Source: Rhodospirillaceae bacterium
GTDB lineage: Bacteria > Pseudomonadota > Alphaproteobacteria > Rhodospirillales > Rhodospirillaceae
Direction of reading: 5' to 3'
Length of the DNA stretch: 64,000 bases
Assembly (NCBI GenBank): GCA_050250575.1
Contig: JBFWOJ010000018.1
Location: 5,816 to 69,815 of the forward strand
How positions within the stretch are numbered: the first letter of the stretch is position 1; each line of letters opens with the position of its first letter. Shown in pieces: positions 35,509 through 61,586 of this stretch. The notes under the pieces were generated by a model. That model was not told the DNA's origin and searched no databases. It saw only the letters and a program-made list of their open reading frames with translations. The translations under genes were made by a program, and so were the position numbers.

Positions 35509-35584
35509 GCCCAGGTAGCTCAGTTGGTAGAGCAAGGGACTGAAAATCCCTGTGTCGCTGGTTCGATTCCGGCCCTGGGCACCA
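35509..35584 (+). tRNA. tRNA-Phe (anticodon GAA)
   Basis: The acceptor stem GCCCAGG pairs with CCTGGGC. The D-loop is AGCTCAGTTGGTAGAGC, the anticodon loop is CTGAAAA and the T-arm is GGTTCGATTCC. CCA is encoded. Confidence 0.95.
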
Positions 35585-35586: not shown

Positions 35587-35699
35587 TCTCCTTTCCGCAG
35601 TCGTCCGTAGTCGTTCGCCGACGTCGAACTTAGCCAATAAAACCGGGCCTTTCTGCGTTCGCAGTTACCCGCCCACGTTGGTGGGCAGCCGGACGACTT

Positions 35700-35812
35700 G
35701 TTGGTATTGCCGTTGGTATCGGACGCAGTGTCCGAAATCGATACCAACAGACTCCCTGTTTCGGAGTCATACCCGCGACGGAGAAGACGGGTGTTGGTAC
35801 GGCGCTACCAAC
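35700..35812. repeat. GTTGGTA heptamer cluster between attL and int (candidate arm-type / operator sites)
   Basis: GTTGGTA occurs at 35700, 35712 and 35793, and TACCAAC at 35742 and 35806. The pair at 35712-35721 and 35739-35748 forms a 10-bp inverted repeat. The pair at 35793-35812 forms GTTGGTA-cggcgc-TACCAAC. Confidence 0.5.
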
Positions 35813-35832
35813 ATACCACGAGGTCGCAGGAA

Positions 35833-37038
35833 ATGCTTACGGACGTGGCCATTAAGGCCGAGAAGCCTGGCTCCCAGCCCCGCAAGATCGCAGATGGTGG
35901 AGGGCTTCATCTCCTCATCAATCCGAACGGCAATAAGCTTTGGCGATTCTCGTACCGCTTTGGTGGAAAGCAAAAGACGATGGCTATGGGGGTCTATCCA
36001 GCGACAAGCCTCAAAGAGGCGCGAGACAAGCGCGACGACGCCAAGAAGCTCCTGGAGAAAGGCGTTGACCCGTCTGTCCAGCGGAAAGAGGACAAGCTGT
36101 TCGCCACGGCTGACCGAAGCTTCAAGACCATCGCAGAGGAACTTATTGAGAAATACCAGACCGAGGGCTCTGCGCCTAAGACGATCAAAAAGATGCGTTG
36201 GATCCTGAGTCTCGTGTATCCGGATATCGGCAGTCTCCAGATTGAACAAATAACTCCTCCCATGCTCCTGGCCTCGCTTCGGAAGATCGAAGCTAAGAAA
36301 CGCTACGAGAGTGCCCGGCGCTGCCGGAGTACCTGCGGGCAGGTCCTTAGGTACGCGATCGCGACTGGCCGGGGAGGGCGGGATCTATCCTTCGATCTTC
36401 GCGACGCTTTGATCACTCCTCAAGTCAAACACCGGGCGACAATTGTCGATCCCGCAAAGATCGGCGGCCTGCTCCGTGCCATCGATGGTTACGACGGCAC
36501 ATTCACCACGAAACTAGCGCTGCGCCTGGCACCGCTGGTCTTTGTGCGTCCGGGTGAGCTGCGTCACGCGGAATGGCCCGAGTTTTCTATCGAAACTGAA
36601 TGGCGCATTCCGGCGGAGAAGATGAAAATGCGCCGTCCGCACCGCGTCCCTCTTTCAAGACAGGCGCGCGAAATCATTCGTGAGGTGAAGGAAATTGGAA
36701 TCAACAGCCGGTATCTCTTTCCCTCGGTCCGGAGCAACGGTCAGCCAATGTCGGAAAACACCGTCACCGCCGCACTCAGACGTATGGGCTATTCCGGCGA
36801 CGAAATGACCGGCCACGGATTCAGGGGAATGGCTTCGACCTTGCTGAATGAAATGGGCAAGTGGAATCCGGATGCGATTGAGCGTCAGTTGGCCCACGTC
36901 GAAGGTAATGATGCTCGTAAGGCCTACATTCATCTTGCCGAGTTCTGGGATGAACGCGTTCAAATGATGCAAGCGTGGGCAGGCTACCTCGATCGACTTC
37001 GAGATGCGCTGCCGACGCAGGTGCTGGCAACAGAATAG
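35833..37038 (+). CDS. int: Tyrosine recombinase, P4-like integrase (DUF4102 N-terminal arm-binding domain)
   Basis: The N-terminus is MLTDVAIKAEKPG...GGGLHLLINPNGNKLWRFSYRFGGKQK. The catalytic residues are in ...GELRHAEW...HRVPLS...TGHGFRGMAST...LAH...AY. Confidence 0.9.
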   Translation: MLTDVAIKAEKPGSQPRKIADGGGLHLLINPNGNKLWRFSYRFGGKQKTMAMGVYPATSLKEARDKRDDAKKLLEKGVDPSVQRKEDKLFATADRSFKTIAEELIEKYQTEGSAPKTIKKMRWILSLVYPDIGSLQIEQITPPMLLASLRKIEAKKRYESARRCRSTCGQVLRYAIATGRGGRDLSFDLRDALITPQVKHRATIVDPAKIGGLLRAIDGYDGTFTTKLALRLAPLVFVRPGELRHAEWPEFSIETEWRIPAEKMKMRRPHRVPLSRQAREIIREVKEIGINSRYLFPSVRSNGQPMSENTVTAALRRMGYSGDEMTGHGFRGMASTLLNEMGKWNPDAIERQLAHVEGNDARKAYIHLAEFWDERVQMMQAWAGYLDRLRDALPTQVLATE

Positions 37039-37395
37039 TGCTGAGCCTGAATCGCTTTTTTACTACGTCTGAGAGAAAACTCAAAAAAACTCTCGCCATC
37101 TATTTACAAGCGGTATGGCGATCACCTAGTCTCACGCGGCGTACGTTGAACTGCCCCATCTGGCCAAATCAATAAAGCCCTATCGGCGTACGTGGGAATT
37201 TGAACAGCAGGCGATCTAACTGGCGTCCGCCTTCAGGCGCGATGCCAACTGTTGTTTGGCGGTGGGGGCCGCAGGGTCCATGGCGTTGGGGAATTGGCGC
37301 GCTTCCGATAGGGGCGCGTTCTAATGTCTCGATGGAGAAAAACATCTGCGCCGCGCGCAGGCCGGCAGCACTCCGCCACGCATTCCCAGTTCAAG

Positions 37396-40300
37396 ATGTC
37401 GCGGCGTGCTTTCGTGGGCGGCGCTGGCGCGTCGGTAGTGCTGGGGCCTGAAGTTTTCGCCGCCGCGGCGCCGCCGGAGTTCGTCGATACCGGGACCGGT
37501 TTCAGACTCGAATATGACGGCCAAGGCTGGATCGTCGACCAGCGGCTGTTTGTTGGAAGCCCCAAAGCCCGCTTTAATAAGAAGAAACAGACGATGTCGC
37601 TGCGCAGCGCCACCTATCCGGGCACCTCGCTGCGTGCCGATTTCGATGCTGAACTCTTCGAGAGCGGCTCCGTCTGGATGATCAGGATTCTCTTTAAGAG
37701 CGCGCAGGCGCCGATCGAAGCACCGCTCTCCGAGTGGATGATCTCCGCGGTCCCACGGACGGGACTGGCGGCGAACATCAAGGAAATCCGCATCGGTCGG
37801 TCGGCCCTGCGAGTCCCGAAAACCGCGCCGCGGCCTGACTTCACGATACGTGGGGACTTCCGGGTGACGCTTCGCCAAGGGCAAGCGCTCGGTCCCGTGC
37901 GATTCGACACCGAAGGGCTGCTGGGTCTTCCGATCGCCGTCGAATCAGCCGCGTTCATGCCCTCTGCCGCGGACGATCCGCGCACTACGGTCACGCTCGA
38001 GGTTGCCGAGTGCGTTGGCTTGCGCGTCGGCGAGGTGGGCCGTGACGTGCGGATCACTGCCGACATGTGGGCGCCGTCGTTCAGGGTGCTCGCGAAGGGT
38101 AAGGGCTCTAAAGCTACTGCCAAGATTGATATTTGCGCCCCCGACGGCGTGATCGCCGTTCAGTCTCGCGGCGCGGGCCCGGCCGGCGCGCGCATCCAAT
38201 TGGAGAAGCCCCAGTTCACCGCTGACACCGATGCCTGCCGACGCGACGTGCAGATCGTCGGGGAGGTTGCGCGGCGCGCTTTCGGCTTAGAGACGTCCGG
38301 ATTCTCGGTGATGCTCCAGGGCAGTGGCGAGCGGGTCGACTATCGTTTCACCAACACACCGCTCGAGCGCATCACCTTCCGCTTGCCTTTGATCGGGGCG
38401 AGCGTGCCGATGTCCGACGCCGTCACCGCCGTCACCGCCGACATCATGTACCCGCCGACCAGCTGCGATATCGTCGTGCGCGATGACTTCGTCGAGCCGC
38501 GGGTGCGAGACGATTGCGCAACGTCCATCTGGATCGGCGAGTCGAGTCAGCTCGATCTTCCGCTCGAATCGGGCGACGTCCGCGTGCGGCGCAGCCTCGA
38601 CCTGTTCGATCTGCGCTTCAATTTCCTTCACTACGCCCTTCGTGTCCGGGGCGGCGAGACTCGCATCCGTCAGCGTTGGTCGCACCCGGTCGGCTGCCCA
38701 GTGCAGAAAGTGGGAGATCATGCCGCGCCGCGGATCATCGTTCGCTTCCCGCCCCAGAGTATCCTCGAAGAGGCGTTCAAGCCGCCCAGCGATACAGCAA
38801 CAACCACCAAGCCGGATCCGACAAACCATTGCTACGTGCCACATGAGCGGCATGAGGTCTCATCGGCGCTCGCAAAAACCCGCGTCGCCGGACCAACGCG
38901 GCTGGTGTTCGAAGACAAGTCGGCCGAAAGTGCATGGACCGACCGCCTCTTCACCGTCGATTTCCTCACCGAGTGGTCCGACCTTGCTTTCATTGTCAAC
39001 CGCCGTGCACTGAGCCGGAAGGCGACGCTCGAGGACCAACTCCGGCTGGTCGGGATCGACCCAAAGACCTCGCGCGAGGATGCGCGGGTGAAAATAATCC
39101 AGTCGATTGGCACGCCGGCGGCTGACGAATCCTCCATCGAGGCGGTTTACCGCATGCTGATGTCGCCCGACGCCCAGGCGAAGTGGAAAAGCCGGCGGCG
39201 CCTGGACCCGCAAAGCCCCGAAATTTGGCATACCGATCTCGCCAATCCCGACGAAACCGCGATGCGCGTCTTGTATGCGCGCGACATGGATCTCGGGTTT
39301 CTCACCGGCAATGGCGTATCGTCCCTGCCCTCACAACTGTGGGCCAGTTCCCTCAGCGCAGACGACCGCCGCCAGCTCGCGGCGCTCACATCATTCTATG
39401 GCTTGGCCGCGCTGCGCCGGCTGGTCCAAAACGCCAGCGCGGGCACCTGGGGCGATGATCCCAACGGCATGGTCTTCATGCCGCCGGGAAAGGACTTTTA
39501 CGAGTATCTGACGAAGCCGGATGGCACCGATGTGCCCCAGGAAGCGGTGATGATGCCGAAACCGTTTTCCCGCGCCCGCCTCAGCCTGTCGCGCTCAGCG
39601 ACCCTTGACGCCGCGTGGCATGGCGAGCCGGCGGCGGGTTACGACAACGGCCTCCGGCCTCCATTCTTCAAGCCCTCGTTCACGATCGAGCGTTATCTCC
39701 ATCGATTGCGGGAGGGCCGCGATGTCTTTGTCGAAGTCACCTACAAGGGCTTCCTCTTGCCGCTGGGTCATCGCGCCGCGCTGCTCAAGGTGACGCAACG
39801 CGAGATTCATCCGGCCGCGAACACGGACAAGACCGATCCCGTCGGCTACCTGATCCAGCACTACTACATCGTCTGCCGCAAACCGCTGAAGCATTACCCC
39901 GCCTACAATCAGCCGTTCCGCACACACGAGTTCTCGCCGAAGTCGATCGAGCTCTTGACCACGCAAACGCCCGATCTGGACGACCCGCGCTGGCCGGAAG
40001 GGGCGTTCGCGGATCCAAACCCAGCGGAATACAAGAAGGATGTGTGCCGCCCGCCTCCCGGTCCTGGTGGAGTGGTGGGCGTGTTCTGGCCCGTCCTGCT
40101 CCACGTCCCAGGTCACACGGGGACGGATCAGAAGGGCCGCGAGGTGATTTTCGAATACAAGGTCGATGGCGCCGATACCCCAGCGCGCTCGCCGCTGCTC
40201 TTTGTCGACAACGCCGCAGCGCACGACCCGGACGTCATGAAAATGGTCGTCCAGTATTATAACGACAAGATCATCACTTCGCCCGATTTCTCGCTTTTGC

Positions 40301-43300
40301 GGCCGCTCGCTTATCCCGATACCTTGCGCATCATGGACCATCAGGGTGTGCCGCGCCGGTATGCCGCCGAGACTAAGGCCGGTGAGTGTACCTTCGAGAC
40401 CACGTCCTGGCTCATGAGTGTGCGCGGCCGCGTCCTGCCCGAACGCGGCACGGCCACCGGCGGCGGTCCTGTTCCTGTGCACGAGGTCGAAGACTTCCGC
40501 ATGGACGCCTTCATGGAAGGCAAGGATCAGCCGCCATTCTACCCGGTGATGAGCAAGGCCGCGGTCTCGATCGAGCCGATCAATCGTCTTATCGGCGACC
40601 GCCAGAAGATGATCGAGGTCGCCTTCAACCCCACCTACGTGCGCGAGGGGTTTGATCCCGGGCGCAATCCCTCGGAGATCTATCTTGATCTGCTCGCACC
40701 CATCATCCATCTCGATGTCGCCGCGAATGGCCGGTCGACCGGCGGCGTCGCCAAGCCGAACATCGCCCTCGCGGCGTTGTCGCGGCGCAACGGTCCCATG
40801 GGCGGCCGTGCCGGGCCGCCGCGTCCGAACCCGCAAAACCGTTCGCTGCCTTTGGCGCGCAATGTGACGTCGCGCAAGCAGCTCGTCCTGGGCGGGAACC
40901 ATACGCGCAGCGCATCCGTCCAAAGCGCCATGGCGGGATCCTTCGACCCGATGGAAGCCTTCGGGAGCGCACTCAACGAGGCGAAGCTACTTGGTATCAT
41001 CCCCCTCAAAGACATTCTGAAAGTGGTTGCCGTCGGCCTCGCGCCGAAGCTCAAGGAAAAAACTCAATATCTCACCGGCTTGGCCGACGACACAGAGGCG
41101 GCATTTGCAAAGGGGCTGAAGGCCGCTGGTCAGGCCGTGCGGGATTTCGTTCAGGCCGAAATGACGCAACTTGACGACGGCCTTCGCAAGATGGCTGGTG
41201 GCCAATCCAGTGCCGCCGAGATGTATCCGGAGCTGTGGACCAGCTTCAAAGCTGTGGTCGCCGCAGCCCATACGGCAGCGGATTTGAAGGAGAATCCACC
41301 GCCGTCATTCGTCGAACTTTTCGCACTTGCCGACAACATCAATGCCGCCGTTCGGGACGCCATTGCCGAGGTGCGCAAATTTGCCGAAGACCCGATGCCC
41401 GGCAACCTCGCCGACGCGGTCCAACAGATCCAAGTCATCTGGAAGTCGCTTCGCGATGTGACCAGCGACCCGTTTGCGGCGTTCCGCACCTACTTCGAGA
41501 ACTTCCTCGGTAAGCAAGGTGTGCTCACAACGGTCTGCGATTTTGCCATAACGGCCGGCCTGTTCGAGCAGATCTTCGGTCCGGCGGAGGTCGAGGGCGG
41601 TCCCGGCGGTATCGACTATTTCCTCGAACTGGCGCCGGTCGATACCTCCGTTTCGCCCAACGCGGCTGCCGCCAGACACGAGCAATGGCATGCCGCCTGC
41701 CGCCGGTTCTTGCGCAATCCGAAGGACGTGATGCCGCGTCTCGAGCGCGCGGTGTTCTATCCCACGATTGGCGGTCCGCTGGCCCGGGCGGTCGAAACTC
41801 TGAAAGCGCTGAAGGCCGATGCTGACAAGCAGGTCTCGGTCTCGCGCCGTCAGCTCGCCGAAAAGATCGTCACGGTCCTGCGCCAGGGCGAAGCAGCAGT
41901 CGAGGCGGAAGCCTTGGCGTTTGCTGGCGCCGCCGTCTCCGAGCTCATCGATGCCATGCTCCTCGGTGCGACGAGCGAGAGTCCGCCAAATGTCGAGGCG
42001 GTAGTGAAAGCCATCAAGGGCGATCTCGGAAAGATCGTCGAAAAGCTGAAGACCGACCTTGCTGCAGCGACCACTAAGGCGGCGGAACGGGAGGCTGAAT
42101 ATCGCAATGCGGCGGATGCGGCGCTGGCCGGCACCGATGCCAACATGTATGAGCTCTATTACAAGGAGGTCGCGAAGGCCAACGTTCAGGCGCTCCGGAT
42201 CGAGGCCTTCACCCGGCTCCTCAACCTTATGGCGAAGCCGGATAATCTCGAAAAAATATCGACAGAACTCGAAAGAGCCTTGCGCGCGCTTGTGGATCAG
42301 GCCGTACGCGATGCCCAAGCCGCCGCGGTTGCCTTTGCGAAAACGCAGGCCGAAGGCTTTGCCAAGCGTATCACCGCCGTCGGCCAGGCGCTGGTCGAAC
42401 ACGCGAGCGCCTCCGGTTTCCTCGCCGAGACTGCCGATCTCATCAATCAACTTGCCGGCGGGTGCGAAGCCTTCTCGGCAAAGCTTCTCGCTTTCGCGGC
42501 GTGGATCACCGGCGGCGCAGTACGCGATCTTCAGGCCGCCGGTCAGGCCGTGCTACGCATCGACCAGAAATTCACCGAATTCGCGTTGACGGTTGAAGGT
42601 CTAACGCAAGTGCCCGAGGGTGTTCGCGCCGGCCTGTCGCAGGCTGTTTCCGCAGCCATGACGCCGGTTCAGCGCCTCGGCGCGGTGTACGAAAAACTTG
42701 TTCGCGCCCATCAGGCGGTCGTCAATCATAAGCCGGCGAACGTCTGTATAGACGCCGCCGCTTTCCTTGGCCCCACCGCGCAGGCGCTCGAGCTTCGGCG
42801 CGCGCTTCTCGACACCACGGCGGCTGCGGTCGCGGCGCTCGCCGATATCCGCAGGGTGATCGCGCAGTCGCCGCAGTTGGCGACCGCAATCGTCAATGCG
42901 GCGGTGCTGGACCTCGCAAGTGAGCTGATTCAACTCCTCGACGACGTTTCTATCGTTCGCAGGCTTGCCGCGACCCTTACGCCGCCGGCGCTGGCGGAAG
43001 CCGCCGCGCCGTTCAACACTATCGTCACGGAGTTCGACCTCAACACCAACTTCGCGGAAGAGCTTCGCGTCATGCGCGAGGAAGCGGCGCGGCTGACGGA
43101 CGATCTTGACAGTTTGAAAAAGAACGTTGCGGCGGACGTCGCCAATATTGTCCTGGCGACCGACCACATGCGCCGATTGACCGACTTTGCTGCCAAGCAG
43201 GAGAAGCGCCTGGCCGCGGTCATCCTGCAAGCCTCTCTTGCCGCGGACGGGCTTGTCACCGAAGCAAAGAATAGGGCCGCCGATACGCTGCTGGCGATGG

Positions 43301-44814
43301 GCGCCGCGCTCACGCGCATTCACGACGATGCTATCAAGGTGGTGACTACGCTGCGCGACGGGATCGACAAGTTGCCGGCCTTGCAGCTCGTCCTGTCGCC
43401 GAAGGTCAAAGTTGGGCTGAACGCGACCCTGGACGCGCTGACGGTGGATCGCGGCTTGGTGGATGGCCTCACCGCGGATGGCAAAGCCAAGAATTTCGGC
43501 CGCGCGCGGGATCTCATGCGCGCCTGGCGCCAGGGCCCGCCCGCCCTGGTCACCGCTCTCGCGTTCGTCGAATCCATCGTCAACGCTGTCGCCACCGGCA
43601 ACATCCGCGCACTGATCGATGTCGATGCAATCGAAAGGCAACTGCGCGCGGAGATAGAGAAGCTTATCCCCGCGAAGATTTCGCTCACCTATGACTTCGA
43701 CGCGGAGCTTCCGGGCTATCCCAGCGGTAACGAGGTGTTCGCCATCTCCGACCGCACGAGTAGCCCCGACGGTAGCGGCCCGCTGATCAACGACCTTGTA
43801 ATCAACACCAGGATTGAGATCGACGTCATCAAACAGACACGCACGGTCTCCGCCGAAGGCCGGATACGTCCTTTCAAAGTTCATCTTCTTGGCAACTCGC
43901 CCGATCTCGTCACCATCCTGTTCAAGGGGGCCCACTTCACCGCTGCCCCCGGGAAGAACCCGGATTTTGTTGCCGACATCGAGCGGGTCGAGATCGGAAA
44001 GGCGCTCAGTTTCCTGTCTGCTTTGGCTAGCCTTACCTCTGGGGGCGGGGGCAACAAGGCAGCGAACGGATTTTATTACGAATATCGTCTGCTGCCCCCC
44101 GAGGTCGAAGTCGGATACCGTTTCAATAAGCCCTATCTCGTGCTCGGCGCGCTGGTTTTCCAGAACATTGGCTTTGCGGTTTCGGCGCACCTTCCGTTTG
44201 ACAACCGCAACGCCGAGTTTCGTGTCTCATTCGCGACCCGCGAACGGCCTCTGCTGATTTCATGTGGCGTATGGGGAGGTGGCGGCTTCGTGGGCATCCG
44301 CGCCGACGCTCGGGGCGTCCTGGCGTTTGAAATTCAGCTCGAATATGGCGCCGTTGTAGGTGTCTCGTTCGGCCCCCTCGATGGTTCAGGAAGGTGCTGT
44401 GCAGGCTTGTATATGCTGTCTTACAAGGGTGGCGGCCGCCGCTTCGAAGGGTTTGTCAACGCCGTTGGTGAAGGGCACGTCGCCTGCTTCGGCGCTTCCT
44501 TTCTGCTCGAAGTGCGGACGGTACAGACCGAACGCAGCTCAATGCAAGGTTCATCCACCTACGGCTTTAGTTTTGATCTCGGCTTGACCTCTTACTCCTA
44601 CAGCGTCACCGCGCAATACGAGACCCAGGGGGGCGGCAACGGCGCCAGAAAGATGAGGCCGCAGGGGATTGCGCGGGATTCGTCACGCGCGGCCGCCGCG
44701 TCTGGAGGAAAAATCCCCTCCGCTAGTGGACCTGTCATCCGCAACAATCTGCCGAGCAAACACCACGATTGGCGCGCCTATGCCACGCGCGTGCGCATCC
44801 ATCGGAAAGCATGA
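37396..44814 (+). CDS. Giant protein of unknown function (~2472 aa); Tat-like N-terminus, beta-rich N-terminal half, ~900-aa Ala-rich helical region, beta-rich C-terminal domain
   Basis: The ORF is uninterrupted for 7.4 kb, with GC-rich third codon positions like the host genes. The start is chosen at MSRRAFVGGAGASVV, and the ORF opens at 37324. No family was recognised. Confidence 0.8.
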   Translation: MSRRAFVGGAGASVVLGPEVFAAAAPPEFVDTGTGFRLEYDGQGWIVDQRLFVGSPKARFNKKKQTMSLRSATYPGTSLRADFDAELFESGSVWMIRILFKSAQAPIEAPLSEWMISAVPRTGLAANIKEIRIGRSALRVPKTAPRPDFTIRGDFRVTLRQGQALGPVRFDTEGLLGLPIAVESAAFMPSAADDPRTTVTLEVAECVGLRVGEVGRDVRITADMWAPSFRVLAKGKGSKATAKIDICAPDGVIAVQSRGAGPAGARIQLEKPQFTADTDACRRDVQIVGEVARRAFGLETSGFSVMLQGSGERVDYRFTNTPLERITFRLPLIGASVPMSDAVTAVTADIMYPPTSCDIVVRDDFVEPRVRDDCATSIWIGESSQLDLPLESGDVRVRRSLDLFDLRFNFLHYALRVRGGETRIRQRWSHPVGCPVQKVGDHAAPRIIVRFPPQSILEEAFKPPSDTATTTKPDPTNHCYVPHERHEVSSALAKTRVAGPTRLVFEDKSAESAWTDRLFTVDFLTEWSDLAFIVNRRALSRKATLEDQLRLVGIDPKTSREDARVKIIQSIGTPAADESSIEAVYRMLMSPDAQAKWKSRRRLDPQSPEIWHTDLANPDETAMRVLYARDMDLGFLTGNGVSSLPSQLWASSLSADDRRQLAALTSFYGLAALRRLVQNASAGTWGDDPNGMVFMPPGKDFYEYLTKPDGTDVPQEAVMMPKPFSRARLSLSRSATLDAAWHGEPAAGYDNGLRPPFFKPSFTIERYLHRLREGRDVFVEVTYKGFLLPLGHRAALLKVTQREIHPAANTDKTDPVGYLIQHYYIVCRKPLKHYPAYNQPFRTHEFSPKSIELLTTQTPDLDDPRWPEGAFADPNPAEYKKDVCRPPPGPGGVVGVFWPVLLHVPGHTGTDQKGREVIFEYKVDGADTPARSPLLFVDNAAAHDPDVMKMVVQYYNDKIITSPDFSLLRPLAYPDTLRIMDHQGVPRRYAAETKAGECTFETTSWLMSVRGRVLPERGTATGGGPVPVHEVEDFRMDAFMEGKDQPPFYPVMSKAAVSIEPINRLIGDRQKMIEVAFNPTYVREGFDPGRNPSEIYLDLLAPIIHLDVAANGRSTGGVAKPNIALAALSRRNGPMGGRAGPPRPNPQNRSLPLARNVTSRKQLVLGGNHTRSASVQSAMAGSFDPMEAFGSALNEAKLLGIIPLKDILKVVAVGLAPKLKEKTQYLTGLADDTEAAFAKGLKAAGQAVRDFVQAEMTQLDDGLRKMAGGQSSAAEMYPELWTSFKAVVAAAHTAADLKENPPPSFVELFALADNINAAVRDAIAEVRKFAEDPMPGNLADAVQQIQVIWKSLRDVTSDPFAAFRTYFENFLGKQGVLTTVCDFAITAGLFEQIFGPAEVEGGPGGIDYFLELAPVDTSVSPNAAAARHEQWHAACRRFLRNPKDVMPRLERAVFYPTIGGPLARAVETLKALKADADKQVSVSRRQLAEKIVTVLRQGEAAVEAEALAFAGAAVSELIDAMLLGATSESPPNVEAVVKAIKGDLGKIVEKLKTDLAAATTKAAEREAEYRNAADAALAGTDANMYELYYKEVAKANVQALRIEAFTRLLNLMAKPDNLEKISTELERALRALVDQAVRDAQAAAVAFAKTQAEGFAKRITAVGQALVEHASASGFLAETADLINQLAGGCEAFSAKLLAFAAWITGGAVRDLQAAGQAVLRIDQKFTEFALTVEGLTQVPEGVRAGLSQAVSAAMTPVQRLGAVYEKLVRAHQAVVNHKPANVCIDAAAFLGPTAQALELRRALLDTTAAAVAALADIRRVIAQSPQLATAIVNAAVLDLASELIQLLDDVSIVRRLAATLTPPALAEAAAPFNTIVTEFDLNTNFAEELRVMREEAARLTDDLDSLKKNVAADVANIVLATDHMRRLTDFAAKQEKRLAAVILQASLAADGLVTEAKNRAADTLLAMGAALTRIHDDAIKVVTTLRDGIDKLPALQLVLSPKVKVGLNATLDALTVDRGLVDGLTADGKAKNFGRARDLMRAWRQGPPALVTALAFVESIVNAVATGNIRALIDVDAIERQLRAEIEKLIPAKISLTYDFDAELPGYPSGNEVFAISDRTSSPDGSGPLINDLVINTRIEIDVIKQTRTVSAEGRIRPFKVHLLGNSPDLVTILFKGAHFTAAPGKNPDFVADIERVEIGKALSFLSALASLTSGGGGNKAANGFYYEYRLLPPEVEVGYRFNKPYLVLGALVFQNIGFAVSAHLPFDNRNAEFRVSFATRERPLLISCGVWGGGGFVGIRADARGVLAFEIQLEYGAVVGVSFGPLDGSGRCCAGLYMLSYKGGGRRFEGFVNAVGEGHVACFGASFLLEVRTVQTERSSMQGSSTYGFSFDLGLTSYSYSVTAQYETQGGGNGARKMRPQGIARDSSRAAAASGGKIPSASGPVIRNNLPSKHHDWRAYATRVRIHRKA

Positions 44815-44815
44815 C

Positions 44816-47800
44816 ATGCCCCTAGCAACAAATCTTTTCTGTCTACCGCTCGCCGACGGCATGAAGTCGGACGGCACCCTTCGCATCAGCATCATGGTGA
44901 TGCCTGAGCCGTCGGCGTCCGGAGCATTCCACATGGACAACGAGGCATTGCCGAGCGCCGTCCGCACGGCGGGTACTCCTACAATTTATGTCTTCGACCG
45001 CAATGGCGACCGTATGCCAGTGAAAGGCGTCGTCATTCACGACAACTGGCCGCACAATACCGTCGAAAAAGCCGATGCTCTGTGGCTTAGGCTCTTCCCT
45101 AAAGCCAAGGCTCAGGATCTCTGGGACACGCTTGTGGGGACTGCGTCGGCCGGCGCGCACATTTTAAATCGCAATGACGCAGCCGCGCGCGGCTTTGTCC
45201 TCGCAGGAAAACACGCGGTTTCCGTCCGCGGCGGCCGGCACTATGACCACGCCGGTATCAGTCGGGATCTCGAAGAGGTCAGGGTGGCCGATAGCGCCTG
45301 GCGTCTCGGCGTCGTCGCGGCGGCGTGCCATCTTCAGGAATTGCAGACTCAAAAAGGCGCCAACCAAGATACGCTCAACGGACTAACGTCGTTGCCGGCC
45401 GTTGCCTCCGCGGCTGCTGCGCCGTTCCGCGATGTCGGCCTGATCTTCCGCCGCGCCATTGCGCCGCTGTTCGAGTTCGCGGAACGCCGGTTCGACTCCA
45501 TGGCGCGGGTCGCGCACTTCGTTGCGCCGAGTGTGGAAGATGCGTCGCGCACGTTGTTGTTTGCCGATCTGGACAAGGCGTCCAAGGCCGCGATCAATGT
45601 TGACCGAACCTCACGGCGCCTCGAGGCCGACTACCCCGCGCTTTTCGGCAGCCTGCAGCGAACGCTGGCGGAGACGAAACGACCGAACGTCCTGACATCA
45701 TTGTCGCTTACGCCGAACAGTCTTAAGGCGGCGACACCTCATTTTGCCAAAAAGCTGCTGGCCCACGGCGAGGCAAATCCGATCGAGCAGAAGCAGTCGC
45801 ACGAGCGCGATGTCAAGGTTACCGACAAATATGAGCAGGTCCGCCGTAAGCTGGCCGGGATACGCTCGTTTCCCACGGTCGCCAAGTTTCTCGGCATGAT
45901 TGTCGATGTTGAGATATCGGCCGCGGACGCGGCAAGTTTCCCCGCCAGCGGATTCATCGGCGCCACGTTCGGTACCACCCGGCCGCCCGATATGGGTTCC
46001 GCGCGCGAACTTACAGCCTTCGCTCTCGATCGCGCGCAAGGAATGTTTTACGTCCGCGAAAATCCGCGGTCGGCCGAAGACGGAAATCCCCTGTTGAATT
46101 TCTATAGCAATGACTATCCGTTGCAACGCGGTCTGGCGGTTGGATCGCAATTCACCGTCGGTTCCGACGATCCGGTGATGCATCTTTATTCAACCGCGCA
46201 GCAGATGATGTCCGAGAGCGAGGCCCTTGCCAACGGCGCCCTGCCGCAGAGTCTGTCTTCGAAGCTTCCCGAGGTGCAGAACCGCGGGCTCCATGTGCTT
46301 TATCGCGAGGCCTTCTTTCAGTCGAGCGCCTTCGCCCAGCGCGCGGTCGAGAACGTCATTCGTCGCACGAAAGGCGAGACGATTTATCACTATGCCGAGG
46401 ATCTCATCATTGGCGTGAGGCCCGACGTTCGGCGCACGCGTACGCCCGCCGCGCCAGCTCGCTCCGAGGCAGCGAGTGCCACGCCAGTGGCCGACGAGTT
46501 CCTGCCGCTGATGATCCGTACCTTGTCGTTTCACGACATCCGCAGCGCTTATGGGCGCAATCCCGACGTGGATGACGGCTGGCATCCCTATCCCGAGTTC
46601 CAGGATCGCGATCACGGCGTCGCTCGCGCGCTTCCGAAGCTGGTTCCCAACGGAACTGACAAACAGCTTTCGCCGGCGCAGACCGTCCTCACCTGGATGG
46701 GTGATCCTCTGGGCGTGCCGGCACCGCAGATCGATAAGGACGGAAACGAAATATACGAAGTGCCTGCCTCTGCCGACGACTTCGATCTCGGCCACACCTA
46801 CGACGTCCCGATCAGTCTGCTGCCCCCGCCGGTTCTGCGGGTCGGCGACTCATACGAGTTTGGCATGCGCGCCGTCATGCCCCACGGCGGCGACATCGGG
46901 TTCGACAAGGCGGTCGATCTCTATGATAAGACGGCGCAGGCGCCTTTTGCAGGGGAAGGCTTTGCGACGGCAGCGTTCCCCTTCCTTTATCAGGGCGACC
47001 TGAAGTCCCCTATCGTCCTTCTGCCGCACAACGATCCCTTCCTCAATCCCGCGATCAAAGCGCCGCCGCTGGCGCGTGACGACCGCATCGTGCTGCGCAG
47101 CGGATCATCGGGCCAAACGAACTACATTCGGCGCATCCTTGTTCCGCCCAAGGTCAATCCGGATGTCGCCGAGCAATTCGGTCTTTTTGATCCGTACACA
47201 GACACAGACGATGTTAGCCCGCCCAGCGCCTTTCTTGCTTATCAGCGGGTCGAGGGGACCGGCGCGTTTCCCGACGTCGCAAATCACGCGATCCAAACCA
47301 ATGTAAATCGCAGCCCCGTCGCCGGTGGCGTGCTTGCCGTGGCCAAGCCGACCAAAGCGGAAATACCCGCCTATTACCCGCATCCTTTGTCGCGCACCGC
47401 GATGATGCTGTTCGAACGCAATCTTCGCGTTCCGACGCCCTACACCGACCAACCGGTCGAGATGAGTTTCTGGAACGCGGACGAGACACCTTTCAACGCG
47501 CGCCCGGTGGTTCTGGACTTTTACGCCAACAAAGATGTCAAGGGCGCGGAGGTACAGGCCGGCTTTTCCACAACTCTTGGGGGCAAGGGGACGCCGCCGG
47601 TCACCGCTCACGTCATCAATGTTGCGCCGGCCGAATTTGCGACTCTCTGGTACTGGGTACCGGACGCCAACGAAACCATAACGAAACGCGCGCGCACGCG
47701 CGCGATCGTCAGTCGGCTTGGCAAGGTGTTGGCTTCGAGCGCACACACAATCGCTTTAGCTAAGAATCTTGGCTTCGATTCCGAGGGCGACGCCGACGAT

Positions 47801-57125: not shown

Positions 57126-57428
57126 GTGCCCAAGCTCATAGGCATTTCCGCGGTTGTCGGATTCTTTCTCAGCCTTGCCTTTCTCACTGCAGTGTCCTTT
57201 TACGCCATCACGCTGCGCGCGGCTCTCATTAACTGCCGGCAGACGCAAACAACGCTCAGCAATCAAGTTGTTCGGTGCGAAAACCGGATACATGCGGTTA
57301 GTGCGCATGCCGAGCAACTCACCGTGCAGATCGCGCGGGAGAAGAGCAATGCTCGCGCTCTTGAATCAAGACTGGAAGCCGCCGGTGCGTTGCGACGCTG
57401 CGCGTCGCTGGGGCTCGGGCAGTCATGA
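57126..57428 (+). CDS. Small membrane-anchored coiled-coil protein (hypothetical), first gene of the mscS-otsAB operon
   Basis: AAGGAGG (57111-57117) lies 8 nt before the GTG at 57126. It has a TM helix (LIGISAVVGFFLSLAFLTAVSFYAI) followed by helical sequence. Its stop overlaps the mscS start (ATGA). Confidence 0.45.
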   Translation: MPKLIGISAVVGFFLSLAFLTAVSFYAITLRAALINCRQTQTTLSNQVVRCENRIHAVSAHAEQLTVQIAREKSNARALESRLEAAGALRRCASLGLGQS

Positions 57429-58564
57429 ACGAGGTAATCCGCGTCGTGGAATTGATTCCTGACTGGGCCGCCGGTGTCGGAATCTTCATTCTCGCCGTTG
57501 CAACCGCCGCTCTCGTCTACCTGACAATCGCCAGGGTGATCGCGTTAGCGACCAAACGGCGCGCCACATATCTACATTCCGTCTTTCATCGCGTGCGGCG
57601 GATCGTAGGTCTTGGTCTCATTCTGATAGCGATCAATCTCGCGGTCCAATTACCTTATTTTCCGGAGCGCGTCAGCGCATTGACGTCCAAGTTCCTCAGC
57701 GTCGCCGTTATTCTGCTTATCGGGTGGGCGGCAACGATCGCGGTGGACGTGGCCAGCAACCTCTATCTGCGTCAATACAAGAACGAAACAGCTGACAGCA
57801 TCCTAGCGCGAAAGCACTTCACGCAAATTCGCGTGCTTCGGCGCACTATCGACGTTCTCATCGGAATAGTGACGATCGCCGCCGCCTTGATGGCGTTCGA
57901 GCCGGTGAGACAGTTCGGCGTAAGCTTGTTCGCATCCGCGGGCGCTGCTGGGCTTGTCGTTGGACTAGCGGCACGCCCGGTCCTCTCTAATCTTATAGCC
58001 GGAATCCAGCTCGCAATTACCCAGCCTATCCGCCTAAACGATGCCGTGATCGTGGAAGGTGAATGGGGAACTATCGAGGAGATCACAAGCACCTATGTTG
58101 TGATCAAAGTCTGGGATTTGCGCAGGTTGATCGTGCCCTTATCCTATTTCATGGAAAAGCCTTTCCAGAATTGGACCCGAGAATCGACACAATTGGTGGG
58201 CGCTGTCTATCTTCGCGTCGACTATGCCGTTCCGGTTGATCGCATACGAGCGAAACTTCAGGAAATAGCCCAAGCGTCATCTCTATGGGACAAGCAAGTC
58301 GTCAATCTGCAAGTCACGGACATGAAGGACAACACGGTCGAACTGCGCATGCTGGTTAGCGCCGCGACCAGCGGCGACGCATGGAATCTTCGCTGCGAGG
58401 TGCGTGAAAAGATGCTGACCTTCCTTCAAAACGAATATCCCGACAGCCTTCCGCGGCAGCGCGTCGAACTTATGGACGCCGAATACCATCAACGAGGGCA
58501 GCGAGACGAAGATACCTTGGAGTGGCCGCGGTCCAAGATCCTGTTGCGCGGGAATGGAGCCTGA
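57425..58564 (+). CDS. mscS: Mechanosensitive ion channel, MscS family
   Basis: It has TM helices followed by GLAARPVLSNLIAGIQLAITQPIRLNDAVIVEGEWGTIEEITSTYVVIKVWD. Confidence 0.9.
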   Translation: MNEVIRVVELIPDWAAGVGIFILAVATAALVYLTIARVIALATKRRATYLHSVFHRVRRIVGLGLILIAINLAVQLPYFPERVSALTSKFLSVAVILLIGWAATIAVDVASNLYLRQYKNETADSILARKHFTQIRVLRRTIDVLIGIVTIAAALMAFEPVRQFGVSLFASAGAAGLVVGLAARPVLSNLIAGIQLAITQPIRLNDAVIVEGEWGTIEEITSTYVVIKVWDLRRLIVPLSYFMEKPFQNWTRESTQLVGAVYLRVDYAVPVDRIRAKLQEIAQASSLWDKQVVNLQVTDMKDNTVELRMLVSAATSGDAWNLRCEVREKMLTFLQNEYPDSLPRQRVELMDAEYHQRGQRDEDTLEWPRSKILLRGNGA

Positions 58565-58570
58565 CCACAT

Positions 58571-60796
58571 ATGCGTTTCATTGTGCGTTTTGCTCTTCCG
58601 CTTCTCGTCGCGCTTGCCGCCCTCTCTGCTGCGCTGACGCCGATCGCCGACAATCTGATCAGCCAATGGTTCCAGAGGGATCTGCAGTTGCGGTCTCGGC
58701 TTATCTTCAATGCGATTGAGCCGTCCCTCCGTCATCTTCTCAATACCGAGGATACTGACCAAATCGCGAGGCTCTTTAACGCTATCGCAGAGGATGAGCG
58801 CGTCTTGGCGATAGCATGGTGCGGCAACAATGAGGCTCGTCGTGTTTTTAGCAGAGCTTGGCCCGAGAGCATCGCATGCCCCGCCCGCGACGACGCCCCT
58901 ACCTCAAGATCCATCAAAAATGGGTCTGGGACTGTTCTTTCCGCAACGTTTCGCATGGGCGAAGACACTGAGCCGCTTGGCAAGCTCGTCGTTCTGCATG
59001 ATTTGAGCTTTGTAGAGAGCCGGACAGATACCGCCGGATTGTACCTGATGGGCTTCCTGGGGCTCGTCAGCTTGGTCGCAGCGGTCATCACGATGATCAC
59101 GGCTAGGTTGACACTTCGCGGTTGGCTTAAGAGCGTTCGCCACCTTGTGTTCGCGGGCCCGGCGGAGGAGTCACACGACCCGGCGATCGCGCCGATGGTC
59201 AGAGAGATCCGTCAGCTGATCCGCGAATTAGATTACTCGAGTCCCGGCTCTACTCATATACGGGTGGATTGGTCTCCCGAAGCGCTTCGCAGGGTCATCG
59301 CCACGGAGCTGACCGGAGGCCAAGTGATAGTGGTGTCGAACCGCGAGCCCTACATCCATAATAAGGGCGCGGACGGCCGCGTCTCGCTTCAACGGCCGGC
59401 CAGCGGAATGGTGACTGCTCTTGAACCTGTTATGCGCGCATGCGGCGGGACGTGGATAGCCCATGGCAGCGGCAGCGCCGACCGGGATGTCTCCGACAGC
59501 AATGATCGCGTAGCCGTTCCGCCGCATGATCCTTCTTACACGCTGCGGCGTGTGTGGCTCAGCGAGGAGGAGCAGGACGGCTATTACTACGGATTGGCTA
59601 ATGAAGGATTATGGCCGCTGTGCCACATCACGTTTGTTCGGCCCATTTTTAGAGAGCCCGATTGGGAATACTATCATGCGGTAAATAAAAAATTCGCTGA
59701 CGCTGTAGTGGCGGAGGCAGCGCGGCCCGACCCCATTGTCCTCGTTCAGGACTATCATTTTGCGCTGCTGCCCCGGATGATCAAGGAGCGATTGCCGCGC
59801 GCAACGATTATTACCTTTTGGCACATACCATGGCCAAATGCTGAGCTTTTCGGGATCTGTCCCTGGCGGGAGGCCATCATCGATGGTCTCCTCGGCAGTT
59901 CCGTTATCGGCTTTCACACCCAGCTACACTGCAACAACTTTATCGAAGCAGCCGACCGATTCATCGAATGTCACATTGACCGCGAGGATTCCTCGGTGTC
60001 GGTGTCGGGAAAGGCGGCGTATATCCGTCCTTACCCAATATCAATAGCGTGGCCTCCAGAATCCATGGAAGGACAGGCGTCCGTTGCCACGTGTCGCGAG
60101 CGTATTATCGCGGAATACGGATTACCTGCCCAAGTGCAACTGCTCGTCGGCGTCGAGCGCTTCGATTTCACTAAAGGAATCCCCGACCGGTTCCGGGCGG
60201 TCGAGATTCTACTAGAGAGGCACCCGGAACTCATCGGCAAATTCGTGCTGCTGCAGGTCGCCGCCCCTACGCGAAGCAAGCTTGCGGCTTATGCGGAAAT
60301 CCAGCGTGAAGCCATTAAGGTCGCCGCGGATGTCAATCAGCGATTTGGAACTCATGGATACCAGCCGATCATTCTTGTCGCCCGTCACTACGAACCGGAG
60401 CAAGTTTTCGAGCTCTATCGTGCCGCCGATGCATGTATCGTGAGTAGTCTTCATGACGGCATGAACCTTGTCGCTAAGGAGTTTGTCGCGGCGCGGGACG
60501 ACAATCGCGGCGTACTCATTCTCAGCAGCTTCGCCGGCGCGTCGCGCGAGCTCATGGAAGCACTCATCGTAAATCCATTCGACGCGCGTGTCTCAGCGGA
60601 AGCCATATACCGAGCCATGCAAATGCCGGTGGGGGAGCAGGAACACCGTATGCAGCTGATGCGTCAAATGGTTAGCGAAAATAACATTTACTATTGGGCC
60701 GGACGCATGCTGCTGGATGCCGCCAGGATTCGGAAGCGCCAACAATTAGAGTCCACCATCGCGAGTGCCGGAAATGGAGTGCGTCTCAGTGCTTGA
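58571..60796 (+). CDS. otsA: Trehalose-6-phosphate synthase (GT20) fused to an N-terminal two-TM sensor-like domain
   Basis: The GT20 core runs from VIVVSNREPY (about aa 255) and includes LWPLCH, VQDYHF, FWHIPWP, GVERFDFTKGI and LHDGMNLVAKEF. The N-terminal ~250 aa carry TM1 (aa 5-25) and TM2 (about aa 155-178). Confidence 0.9.
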   Translation: MRFIVRFALPLLVALAALSAALTPIADNLISQWFQRDLQLRSRLIFNAIEPSLRHLLNTEDTDQIARLFNAIAEDERVLAIAWCGNNEARRVFSRAWPESIACPARDDAPTSRSIKNGSGTVLSATFRMGEDTEPLGKLVVLHDLSFVESRTDTAGLYLMGFLGLVSLVAAVITMITARLTLRGWLKSVRHLVFAGPAEESHDPAIAPMVREIRQLIRELDYSSPGSTHIRVDWSPEALRRVIATELTGGQVIVVSNREPYIHNKGADGRVSLQRPASGMVTALEPVMRACGGTWIAHGSGSADRDVSDSNDRVAVPPHDPSYTLRRVWLSEEEQDGYYYGLANEGLWPLCHITFVRPIFREPDWEYYHAVNKKFADAVVAEAARPDPIVLVQDYHFALLPRMIKERLPRATIITFWHIPWPNAELFGICPWREAIIDGLLGSSVIGFHTQLHCNNFIEAADRFIECHIDREDSSVSVSGKAAYIRPYPISIAWPPESMEGQASVATCRERIIAEYGLPAQVQLLVGVERFDFTKGIPDRFRAVEILLERHPELIGKFVLLQVAAPTRSKLAAYAEIQREAIKVAADVNQRFGTHGYQPIILVARHYEPEQVFELYRAADACIVSSLHDGMNLVAKEFVAARDDNRGVLILSSFAGASRELMEALIVNPFDARVSAEAIYRAMQMPVGEQEHRMQLMRQMVSENNIYYWAGRMLLDAARIRKRQQLESTIASAGNGVRLSA

Positions 60797-61586
60797 GAAG
60801 ATTCCACTGCCTCAACCGCATCTCCGGCCGTGGGCGCTGTTCCTCGACGTCGATGGAACGCTTCTGGAACTCGTCGATCATCCGGACAAGGTTCGCGTAC
60901 CCGAAGAGCTCCCGGGGCTGCTTGGCCAACTGCGAAATTTGCTCGGCGGAGCCACCGCGTTGGTGAGTGGACGTAGCTTGCAGACCCTGGACACGCTATT
61001 TGGCCTGAGGGCGTTTGACGCCGCCGGATGCCACGGGGCCGAGTTTCGATTGAACGGTAAGGAAGCGCCTCCTGCGGCGGATCAAACATTGGTCGCACGG
61101 ATCGCGCGCCGCTTGATCGAAGAAACGTTTGGCCTGAAAAATATTTTCGTCGAAATCAAACCACAGTCCGTAGCGCTGCACTTCCGTATCTCTTCCGTTG
61201 ATCCCGCCGAAGCGCTATTGGCGATGGAGCGCGGTTTGGCGGTTGCTCCCGGCGAATTTCGAATACTTAGAGGAAAGAACGTTTTCGAAGCCGTCGGGTG
61301 TCATACCGGTAAGGATATCGCGGTGGCGCGATTCCTTCTGGAGGAGCCCTACTTTAATCGAACGCCGGTTTTCATCGGTGACGACGTCTCCGATGAGGCG
61401 GCGTTTGCGGAAGTTAATCGCCGCGGCGGGCTTTCAATTCGTGTCGGGGAGCGAGCTGATTCTGTGGCGCAATACTGCATTGCGGATGTCAAGACGACTT
61501 CAATGTGGCTTCGCGACTGGCTGCTTCCGCGGCTCTGCCAGATGCCACCCATTGCACCTCAGCGACACTATCTTCAAATGGTATAA
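60765..61586 (+). CDS. otsB: Trehalose-6-phosphate phosphatase (HAD)
   Basis: The motifs are FLDVDGTLL, VSGRS, GKD and IGDDVSDE. It overlaps the otsA 3' end. The start could be 60765 or 60774. Confidence 0.85.
   Translation: MPEMECVSVLEKIPLPQPHLRPWALFLDVDGTLLELVDHPDKVRVPEELPGLLGQLRNLLGGATALVSGRSLQTLDTLFGLRAFDAAGCHGAEFRLNGKEAPPAADQTLVARIARRLIEETFGLKNIFVEIKPQSVALHFRISSVDPAEALLAMERGLAVAPGEFRILRGKNVFEAVGCHTGKDIAVARFLLEEPYFNRTPVFIGDDVSDEAAFAEVNRRGGLSIRVGERADSVAQYCIADVKTTSMWLRDWLLPRLCQMPPIAPQRHYLQMV

Follow-up and report, generated by a model that had tools for sequence, protein, structure and literature searches.

We analysed a stretch of 64,000 nucleotides (nt) of a Rhodospirillaceae bacterium (GenBank assembly GCA_050250575.1, contig JBFWOJ010000018.1, positions 5,816 to 69,815 of the forward strand), called here the window, and in it a giant gene, A (37396-44814), together with the gene B that lies immediately downstream. 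As far as sequence comparison can tell, the protein A is the long-form A subunit of a widespread two-gene module, A-B, and the twin-arginine motif at its N-terminus is a conserved feature of the family and no chance match. We gave about even weight to the reading in which A and B, encoded here on an island at a tRNA-Phe gene, would form an extracytoplasmic complex targeted to the machinery of twin-arginine translocation (Tat), with A in its long form. The wider claim, that Tat would export a whole family of folded giants (A proteins of 1,000-3,300 residues, ~120-350 kDa), possibly with a bound partner of 150-200 kDa, as a new two-protein machine, was considered somewhat unlikely.

Gene A, its partner B and the spread of the module

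A is encoded by an uninterrupted open reading frame (ORF) of the + strand (37324-44814), with no internal stop. Read from the ATG at 37396, the product has 2,472 amino acids (aa), a mass of 267.9 kDa and the N-terminus MSRRAFVGGAGASVVLGPEVFAAAAPPE (MSRRAFV...), and it is 100% identical to a 'hypothetical protein' deposited for a Rhodospirillaceae metagenome-assembled genome (MAG), the deposited start being 37396 as well. Hence, the ORF 37396-44814 called in an earlier note on this DNA is borne out by both the open frame and the identical deposited product. No Pfam or NCBIfam domain was found in A or in B by whole-protein search, no strong transmembrane helix was seen in A (just five 19-residue segments lie above a Kyte-Doolittle value of 1.6), and whole A and B proteins gave no family match in PHROGs or PADLOC. 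Searches of the PDB chains by sequence and by profile, using A, B and their alignments, returned no relative.

The partner gene is the following:

44816-49759, + strand: partner gene B, 1,647 aa, 180 kDa, with its ATG one base past the A stop (TGAcATG) and GGAAAG upstream

B is homologous to the gene found downstream of A at other loci (E 2e-18, 1e-14 and 1e-10), and the module is strict: A was found in 83 of 84 loci and B in 82, while any other gene recurs in at most 6. The loci were also searched for a further conserved member and for a typical neighbourhood, without success, and the genes on the flanks are functionally unrelated between loci. The earlier note was right that the giant protein is real, but it overlooked this obligate and very widespread pairing. 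B proteins share a conserved start, PNGIxDGxLRLSV, and carried neither a signal peptide nor a transmembrane segment in the 7 loci considered. They have no Pfam or PDB relative, and Pfam at E<=5 over 33 B proteins gave no recurrent weak match. In the five cases in which B stands beside a long-form A (the window, L001-L003 and L088), B measures 1,560-1,910 aa vs a median of 1,342, which hints that A and B expanded together.

To measure the family we used a profile, A4, built on the conserved parts alone. Exhaustive search of 1.84 billion representatives (clusters at 50% identity) gave 6,212 representative clusters at E<=1e-3, a number to be read as a lower bound, and 3,352 at E<=1e-30; the same profile in a word-indexed search found 2,334 matches at E<=1e-10. 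The first word-indexed homologue search had returned just 10 relatives, and we consider this result an artefact, because the low-complexity Ala-rich tract of A had swamped the word index. Among the 120 matches listed, all source-given names were 'hypothetical protein' and the sole Pfam domain was one cohesin. Neither sequence, profile nor fold links the pair to a described family; its export signal is of a known kind, and we found no description of the A-B family, or of giant Tat cargoes, in the literature.

A scan of one genome per species confirmed the locus in at least 566 species genomes, patchily spread over more than 15 phyla. The groups seen include Acidobacteriota, Aminicenantes, Armatimonadota, Chloroflexota, Actinomycetota, Bacillota, Nitrospirales, Verrucomicrobia, Bacteroidota and Ignavibacteria, and among the carriers are also Cyanobium, Geobacter, Bradyrhizobium, Caulobacteraceae and two archaeal MAGs. 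The last (L033 and L071) are labelled Nitrososphaerales and Methanomassiliicoccaceae, and the leader of the Nitrososphaerales one, with a canonical SRRQFLK, passes TIGR01409; these members may reflect either true transfer or binning contamination. Plasmid-borne copies were found in Sinorhizobium meliloti, Agrobacterium vitis, Rhizobium ruizarguesonis, Ruegeria and Bacillus bombysepticus.

The twin-arginine leader

The two N-terminal features of A are:

37396-37467, + strand: twin-arginine (Tat-type) leader, residues 1-24, MSRRAFVGGAGASVVLGPEVFAAA, called from the TatP pattern, the conserved motif and the hydrophobic stretch
37324-37395, + strand: candidate N-terminal extension of 24 codons, MSRWRKTSAPRAGRQHSATHSQFK, with an in-frame ATG at 37324, no stop, and AGGGG, a plausible ribosome-binding site, 9-14 nt upstream

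As Tat consensus we considered [ST]-R-R-x-F-L-K near the N-terminus. Residues 2-7 of A (S-R-R-A-F-V) fit the TatP pattern RR.[FGAVML][LITMVF] through RRAFV, and this default pattern covers 97% of the TatP training signals (PMC1182353). The twin arginine (RR) falls within the first 30 residues from either ATG. Starting at 37324 would add 24 basic residues and move RR to positions 27-28, nearer to the family median of 33, long n-regions being usual in the family.

The motif is not fortuitous, as conservation indicates. The six long homologues that were found first, 23-33% identical to A, without exception keep [ST]-R-R-x-[FV]-[LIV] with a hydrophobic stretch behind it, and the TatP pattern occurs near the N-terminus in 53 of 64 long forms and in 172 of 265 family proteins, to be compared with 0.06 expected per 110 residues. 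Similarly, RR plus a hydrophobic stretch lies within the first 110 residues of 166 of 261 proteins, where the interiors of the same proteins would predict 0.03. The refutation named in the earlier note, that homologues would begin at a Met lacking RR, fails, as the long homologues keep the motif. Aligned on RR, the family logo reads L-x-[LVI]-[ST]-R-R-x-[FLM]-L-G-[LG]-A-G-A-A-A, with S or T at position -1 in 91% and L at +4 in 78%.

Some members that apparently lack RR start within the hydrophobic stretch (e.g. MLGLAGAAAV...), and their start codons have probably been mis-called. When the genome loci were scanned independently of start codons, the leader was found in roughly 45-50 of 80, including Acidimicrobiia, Solirubrobacterales and Dehalococcoidia MAGs and the Nitrososphaerales MAG already mentioned. 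We also scored leaders with two curated hidden Markov models (HMMs), namely Pfam PF10518 (TAT_signal, cut-off 22.7 bits) and TIGR01409 (cut-off 16.7 bits). With TIGR01409, 7 of 10 tested leaders scored 14.3-17.3 bits and 3 of them were at or above the cut-off; with PF10518, two relatives reached 14-17 bits, below the cut-off. In the Pfam search at E<=5 over 42 A proteins, the sole recurrent weak match was TAT_signal, in 2 of them.

Other N-terminal elements were also observed. Mid-size members (P0015-P0181) carry a second conserved element, M-[RK]-x-x-R-L-N-L-x-A-L-R, ~22 residues before S/T-R-R (examples at L046:6771-7250, L083:6663-7150 and L089:5952-6251), and a related start is present in members without RR, i.e. 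MSIELNTTFLKQQ in Bacillus and Cohnella and MPLNLTLLRGD in Bradyrhizobium erythrophlei. A of the window is without an element of this type, which could be a distinct recognition signal. In P0258 (1,291 aa) and P0068 the RR leader is replaced by a Sec-type signal peptide and then a cohesin domain, which suggests an extracellular location and modular N-termini.

Several points weigh against Tat export of A and B. The leader of A, from both starts, is left unscored by TAT_signal and by TIGR01409. Behind the motif, a Tat signal should have ~12-20 residues of moderate hydrophobicity (the h-region) and then a c-region; the stretch of A at this place, AFVGGAGASVVLG, is Gly-rich and weak (the best 19-residue Kyte-Doolittle value in the first 100 residues is 1.46), and V stands at the L position of the consensus. 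Moreover, among cytoplasmic proteins that have RR at the N-terminus, 15% are false positives of the TatP pattern when it is used on its own (PMC1182353). The AlphaFold2 model of residues 1-1200 of A, in which a helix is placed at residues 3-15, is poor, with a predicted local distance difference test (pLDDT) value of 48 from 12 sequences. About one third of the family is without any RR leader and still keeps B, e.g. Cohnella, Bacillus, Cyanobium, Geobacter, B. erythrophlei and many ~1,000-aa minimal forms. Because B is retained without the leader, Tat export cannot be essential to the basic function of the family. Finally, the mass is 268 kDa for A and 448 kDa for A+B, and FdnGH (142 kDa, ~6.4 nm) is named among the largest known Tat cargoes (PMC13186574, a 2026 review).

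The alternative that survives best, which we nevertheless consider unlikely, is that the RR leader does not drive export, that A and B are cytoplasmic, as they have to be in members without RR, and that the leader is a vestige or a site for a folding or assembly factor. A model for such a vestige is offered by the cytoplasmic nitrate reductase NarG, which keeps a remnant Tat leader. The A-B pair that is the same with and without RR, the unscored leader of A and a size far above that of known Tat cargo all agree with this alternative, as do a B that never has a signal and the more general RLNLxALR motif upstream of RR, in that the N-terminus may serve another purpose. Across phyla, and at an overall identity of 25-30%, a vestige would however not preserve S/T at -1 (91%), L at +4 (78%) and a stretch of 12-15 Ala, Gly and Leu residues; some leaders do pass the curated threshold, and one relative has exchanged its leader for a Sec-type signal.

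Domain anatomy of A and its helical insertion

Downstream of the leader, A was divided as follows:

37480-38577, + strand: N-terminal beta-rich domain, residues ~29-394, found in mid-size and long members and missing from the ~1,000-aa minimal forms
38578-41031, + strand: conserved family core, residues 395-1212, mixed beta/alpha, from BLASTP and invariant columns
41032-43662, + strand: Ala/Leu-rich helical insertion of ~880 aa (residues 1213-2089), which separates the core from the C-terminal domain, with boundaries from the alignment to the short form P0204
43663-44640, + strand: C-terminal Gly/aromatic-rich beta-meander domain, residues 2090-2415, conserved, with invariant Gly, Phe and Pro columns
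44641-44814, + strand: C-terminal tail, residues 2416-2472, with the conserved W..Y helix DWRAYATRV (W2459 and Y2462 nearly invariant), then the stop

The comparison with P0204, a short form of 1,130 residues, defines the parts that are shared. By BLASTP, residues 395-1212 of A align to its residues 75-774 (E 7e-46) and residues 2154-2379 to 848-1064 (E 3e-22). The core, at which the minimal ~1,000-aa forms begin, is marked by the motifs FPPQ..E, AGP(S/T)RL.F, GRD..V.V.YKGFL.P.GHRA, ADQPPFYP and AKLLG.I.L; in alignment A1, R399 at its start is invariant, as are W45 and F52 in the N-terminal domain. Composition bears out the Gly/aromatic-rich C-terminus described earlier (residues 2201-2400 hold 15-17% Gly and 13-15% aromatic residues). 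The earlier layout, with a beta-type body and a Gly-rich end, describes real regions, but it overlooked that these are the conserved parts of the protein. The CC pair (GSGRCCAGLYML) singled out there turned out not to be conserved, homologues having QVST, RLVA, RICA, RVTV, RIQV or RLMA at that place.

The AlphaFold2 model of A shows strands at residues 29-110 with a pLDDT of 60-80 and has low confidence elsewhere. For P0204, in contrast, 52 sequences gave a pLDDT of 79.8 and a predicted template-modelling score of 0.69, with a pLDDT mostly of 85-98 over the region equivalent to the core. From its N-terminus, this model is disordered, with a short low-confidence helix at the RR leader, and continues with a beta sandwich, a Pro/Ala-rich linker and the confident mixed beta/alpha core. 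At its C-terminus there are ~20 long antiparallel strands with tight turns on both sides, closed by two helices, and the terminal helices at 1113-1129 are equivalent to the tail of A. The C-terminal strands are strictly dyad-amphipathic across the family.

The helical insertion behaves differently from these parts. The earlier note had placed a helical tract at 40945-43680: its composition was seen correctly, whereas the bounds are refined here to 41032-43662 and the tract is an insertion specific to one subfamily, not the body of the protein. Residues 1201-2000 hold 14-26% Ala and 7-16% Leu, and from residue 1501 onwards there is 1-4% Pro and 0-8% Gly. Residues 1200-2060 of A match just 24-77 residues in short forms (a ~10-residue linker in P0204), and over 263 proteins the length of this linker is bimodal, with 0-250 aa in 201 proteins and 560-1,100 aa in 62, A of the window having 878. 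We therefore considered the tract as a discrete module inserted in one subfamily. The long forms come so far from diderm Pseudomonadota, i.e. the Rhodospirillaceae MAG, Bradyrhizobium, Sinorhizobium and a MAG labelled Pseudomonas sp.

In the alignment the tract is poorly conserved. Checks against known repeat families (Pfam, NCBIfam and internal-repeat analysis) gave no match, the internal repeats being weak and compositional. As to whether it is a helical bundle or a coiled coil, the two options named earlier, the hydrophobic periodicity of ~3.6, nearer to 3.6 than to 3.5, leans to a predicted bundle of amphipathic helices. A more distant protein, P0014 (2,125 aa), shares just the C-terminal beta domain with A (E 9e-16) and has its own ~600-aa helical tract before it; the tract and the C-terminal beta domain may have arisen together more than once, or may be a movable unit.

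The shape of the C-terminal domain bears on a second alternative, in which A would be an envelope-spanning tether of the SlpA/OmpM kind, with an uncleaved leader in the inner membrane, the ~880-aa tract as a stalk and the beta domain at the outer membrane. When the P0204 model was searched with Foldseek against the PDB, the top match was the SlpA trimer 8ae1 (E 2e-4), and the further likenesses were to many porin-type barrels (probability up to 0.99), LptD and ushers; against BFVD, they were to phage host-specificity and tail proteins, with low template-modelling (TM) scores. The tether would also agree with the origin of the long forms, so far all diderm, and with the lack of a conserved signal-peptidase site past the leader: V-F-A/A-A-A is a possible cleavage site in A, but no such site is conserved across the family. 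However, the PDB likenesses have a TM of at most 0.31 and a root-mean-square deviation of ~20 A, which on the predicted model is the likeness of a generic beta-meander. The C-terminal domain is equally conserved in monoderms (Bacillus, Cohnella, Actinomycetota), which have no outer membrane, hence it is not simply an outer-membrane anchor. Moreover, the chain ends in helices with no terminal aromatic strand, outer-membrane barrels normally cross the inner membrane unfolded via Sec, and B is left unexplained. On balance we consider the tether improbable.

Inside the A gene, at 37321-44190, long ORFs were also seen on the - strand: 39595-40923 (442 aa), 41305-42450 (381 aa) and 42601-44190 (529 aa). 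We see in them the ordinary stop-poor frames of high-GC coding DNA and consider it unlikely that they are genes.

Genomic setting, known systems and proposed working

The other features of the window considered here are:

35509-35584, + strand: tRNA-Phe, called by ARAGORN, upstream of A
35698-37038, + strand: P4-type tyrosine integrase (Pfam Arm-DNA-bind_3, Phage_int_M and Phage_integrase; NCBIfam PRK09692)
49781-50569, + strand: YkuD-like protein with an L,D-transpeptidase fold (Pfam YkuD, 23.3 bits, just below the cut-off)
50630-52366, + strand: S8 subtilase (Pfam Peptidase_S8, E 2e-30)
52981-53445, - strand: rve_3 transposase remnant, in the low-GC region

At tRNA-Phe lies an integrative island, whose first cargo is the A-B pair. 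A second attachment repeat (the tRNA 3' end) was not found within the window, nor was the far end of the island. Past roughly 50 kb the GC fraction falls from ~0.63 to ~0.56, and this low-GC region also holds a MarR regulator, an MscS-like channel and the otsA/otsB trehalose genes (57425-61586). The best NCBIfam match of the subtilase is a type VII secretion mycosin model, far under its threshold. The YkuD-like gene and the subtilase do not recur beside A-B at other loci; there we observed a phage-lysozyme-like gene (L002), an M35 peptidase (L001) and, on the Bacillus plasmid, a papain-like protease. Neighbours with wall-active or proteolytic functions may form a loose theme, which is not conserved. 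A further long-form locus, L088, lies on the conjugative plasmid accessoryA of S. meliloti HM006 (NZ_CP021832.1, 86916-110000), with an A of 2,277 aa (leader LTRRTFVAGIGIATVAP) and a B of 1,560 aa, deposited as WP_088202867.1 and WP_153428730.1; its neighbours are a WYL-domain protein, a 1,058-aa N-6 DNA methylase and a group II intron, a defence-island-like setting.

In a third alternative raised by such settings, to which we assign a small probability, similar to that of the tether, A-B would be a mobile-element conflict system, serving either in anti-phage defence or as a toxin cassette used between bacteria, and its place in the cell would be secondary. This reading would fit a self-contained two-gene module with unrelated neighbourhoods and a patchy distribution over more than 15 phyla, the tRNA-Phe island beside an integrase, the conjugative plasmids, and the S. 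meliloti copy, which has a WYL protein as one neighbour and a large N-6 DNA methylase as another. Against it, neither A nor B has a match in PADLOC-DB 2.0, where just the neighbouring subtilase matches a generic model; Pfam and NCBIfam searches found no nuclease, ATPase, NTPase or other enzymatic domain; the loci hold no small immunity-like gene; export leaders are unusual for defence proteins; and no copy of the family was present in 50,697 phage records.

Lastly, the name 'methyl-accepting chemotaxis protein', which NCBI and UniRef give to the Bradyrhizobium homologue P0006, would make A a receptor of the methyl-accepting chemotaxis type or of another known coiled-coil kind. This reading has a nearly negligible probability: A has no MCPsignal, HAMP or other Pfam/NCBIfam domain and no transmembrane helices, and the tract is missing from most of the family. 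We rejected that name as most likely a compositional artefact.

Returning to Tat targeting of A-B, the pair was compared with known systems. It resembles the Tat hitchhiker pairs (FdnGH, HybOC, DmsAB and PaoABC), in which one subunit has an N-terminal [ST]-R-R-x-F-L leader and the adjacent partner has no signal. It differs from them in that those are redox enzymes with cofactors and reach ~142 kDa, whereas A and B measure 268 and 180 kDa, show no cofactor-binding or redox domain in Pfam and NCBIfam searches, and belong to a family in which one third of the members miss the leader.

With the ABC/Tc toxins (TcA with TcB-TcC) the module shares adjacent genes for ~2,500 and ~1,500 aa, borne on mobile elements, and a larger protein in which beta-rich regions occur together with a long helical stretch and a beta domain at the C-terminus. 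Nevertheless, no Tc domain (VRP1/TcA shell, TcB-binding) and no RHS/YD repeat was matched at E<=5 by 42 A and 33 B proteins, no Tc structure appeared among the 50 best Foldseek matches listed, and the helical tract is optional here; Tc toxins are not known to carry a Tat leader.

Long antiparallel amphipathic strands also recall the SlpA/OmpM tethers and the porin barrels, and SlpA joins a long coiled coil to a C-terminal beta domain; the differences are a TM of at most 0.31, no SLH domain detected, the presence of the domain in monoderms, tight turns on both sides and a helical chain end. Giant adhesins and autotransporters are likewise very large and beta-rich, with an N-terminal export signal and a C-terminal beta domain. 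In A-B, by contrast, neither tandem repeats nor Ig-like, cadherin, haemagglutinin or autotransporter domains were seen; its leader is of Tat type and not of Sec type, and it includes an obligate giant partner.

Precisely, the working we propose for the Tat-targeted complex is the following. A would fold in the cytoplasm and be targeted by its leader to the Tat translocase, after which it would be either released beyond the inner membrane or kept anchored by the hydrophobic stretch of the leader. B would most likely travel bound to A by the 'hitchhiker' route of Tat cargo pairs, which is how one usually explains a partner that has no signal of its own and is encoded next to a subunit with a Tat leader. 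In long forms, the helical insertion would act as a stalk or spacer that keeps the C-terminal beta domain apart from the core. Speculatively, the target of the exported complex could be an envelope or a membrane, the complex being toxin-like or a surface structure; hints in this direction come from the export leaders, from the amphipathic beta-meander and from a distribution that is patchy and includes islands and plasmids.

The size of A is what gives the family its interest for protein export. The limit for Tat cargo is thought to be ~140-150 kDa, or 6-7 nm, and it shapes the current models of the translocase, based on a pore or on membrane weakening. On proteins of 120-350 kDa, a Tat leader that is conserved and looks canonical is a natural and direct test of that limit, and if the leader works, A proteins would be by far the largest known Tat cargoes, with 2-3 times the mass of the largest accepted. 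Copies are available on plasmids of culturable, tractable bacteria (S. meliloti, A. vitis, Rhizobium and Bradyrhizobium), and Bradyrhizobium canariense is among the natural carriers. A definition of the family would allow the annotation of thousands of 'hypothetical proteins', and with a coding load of 7-15 kb for A plus B, kept in so many lineages, their role must be an important one. If the proposed reading is true, A-B would be a new kind of extracytoplasmic two-protein machine, present in hundreds of species from Acidobacteriota to rhizobia.

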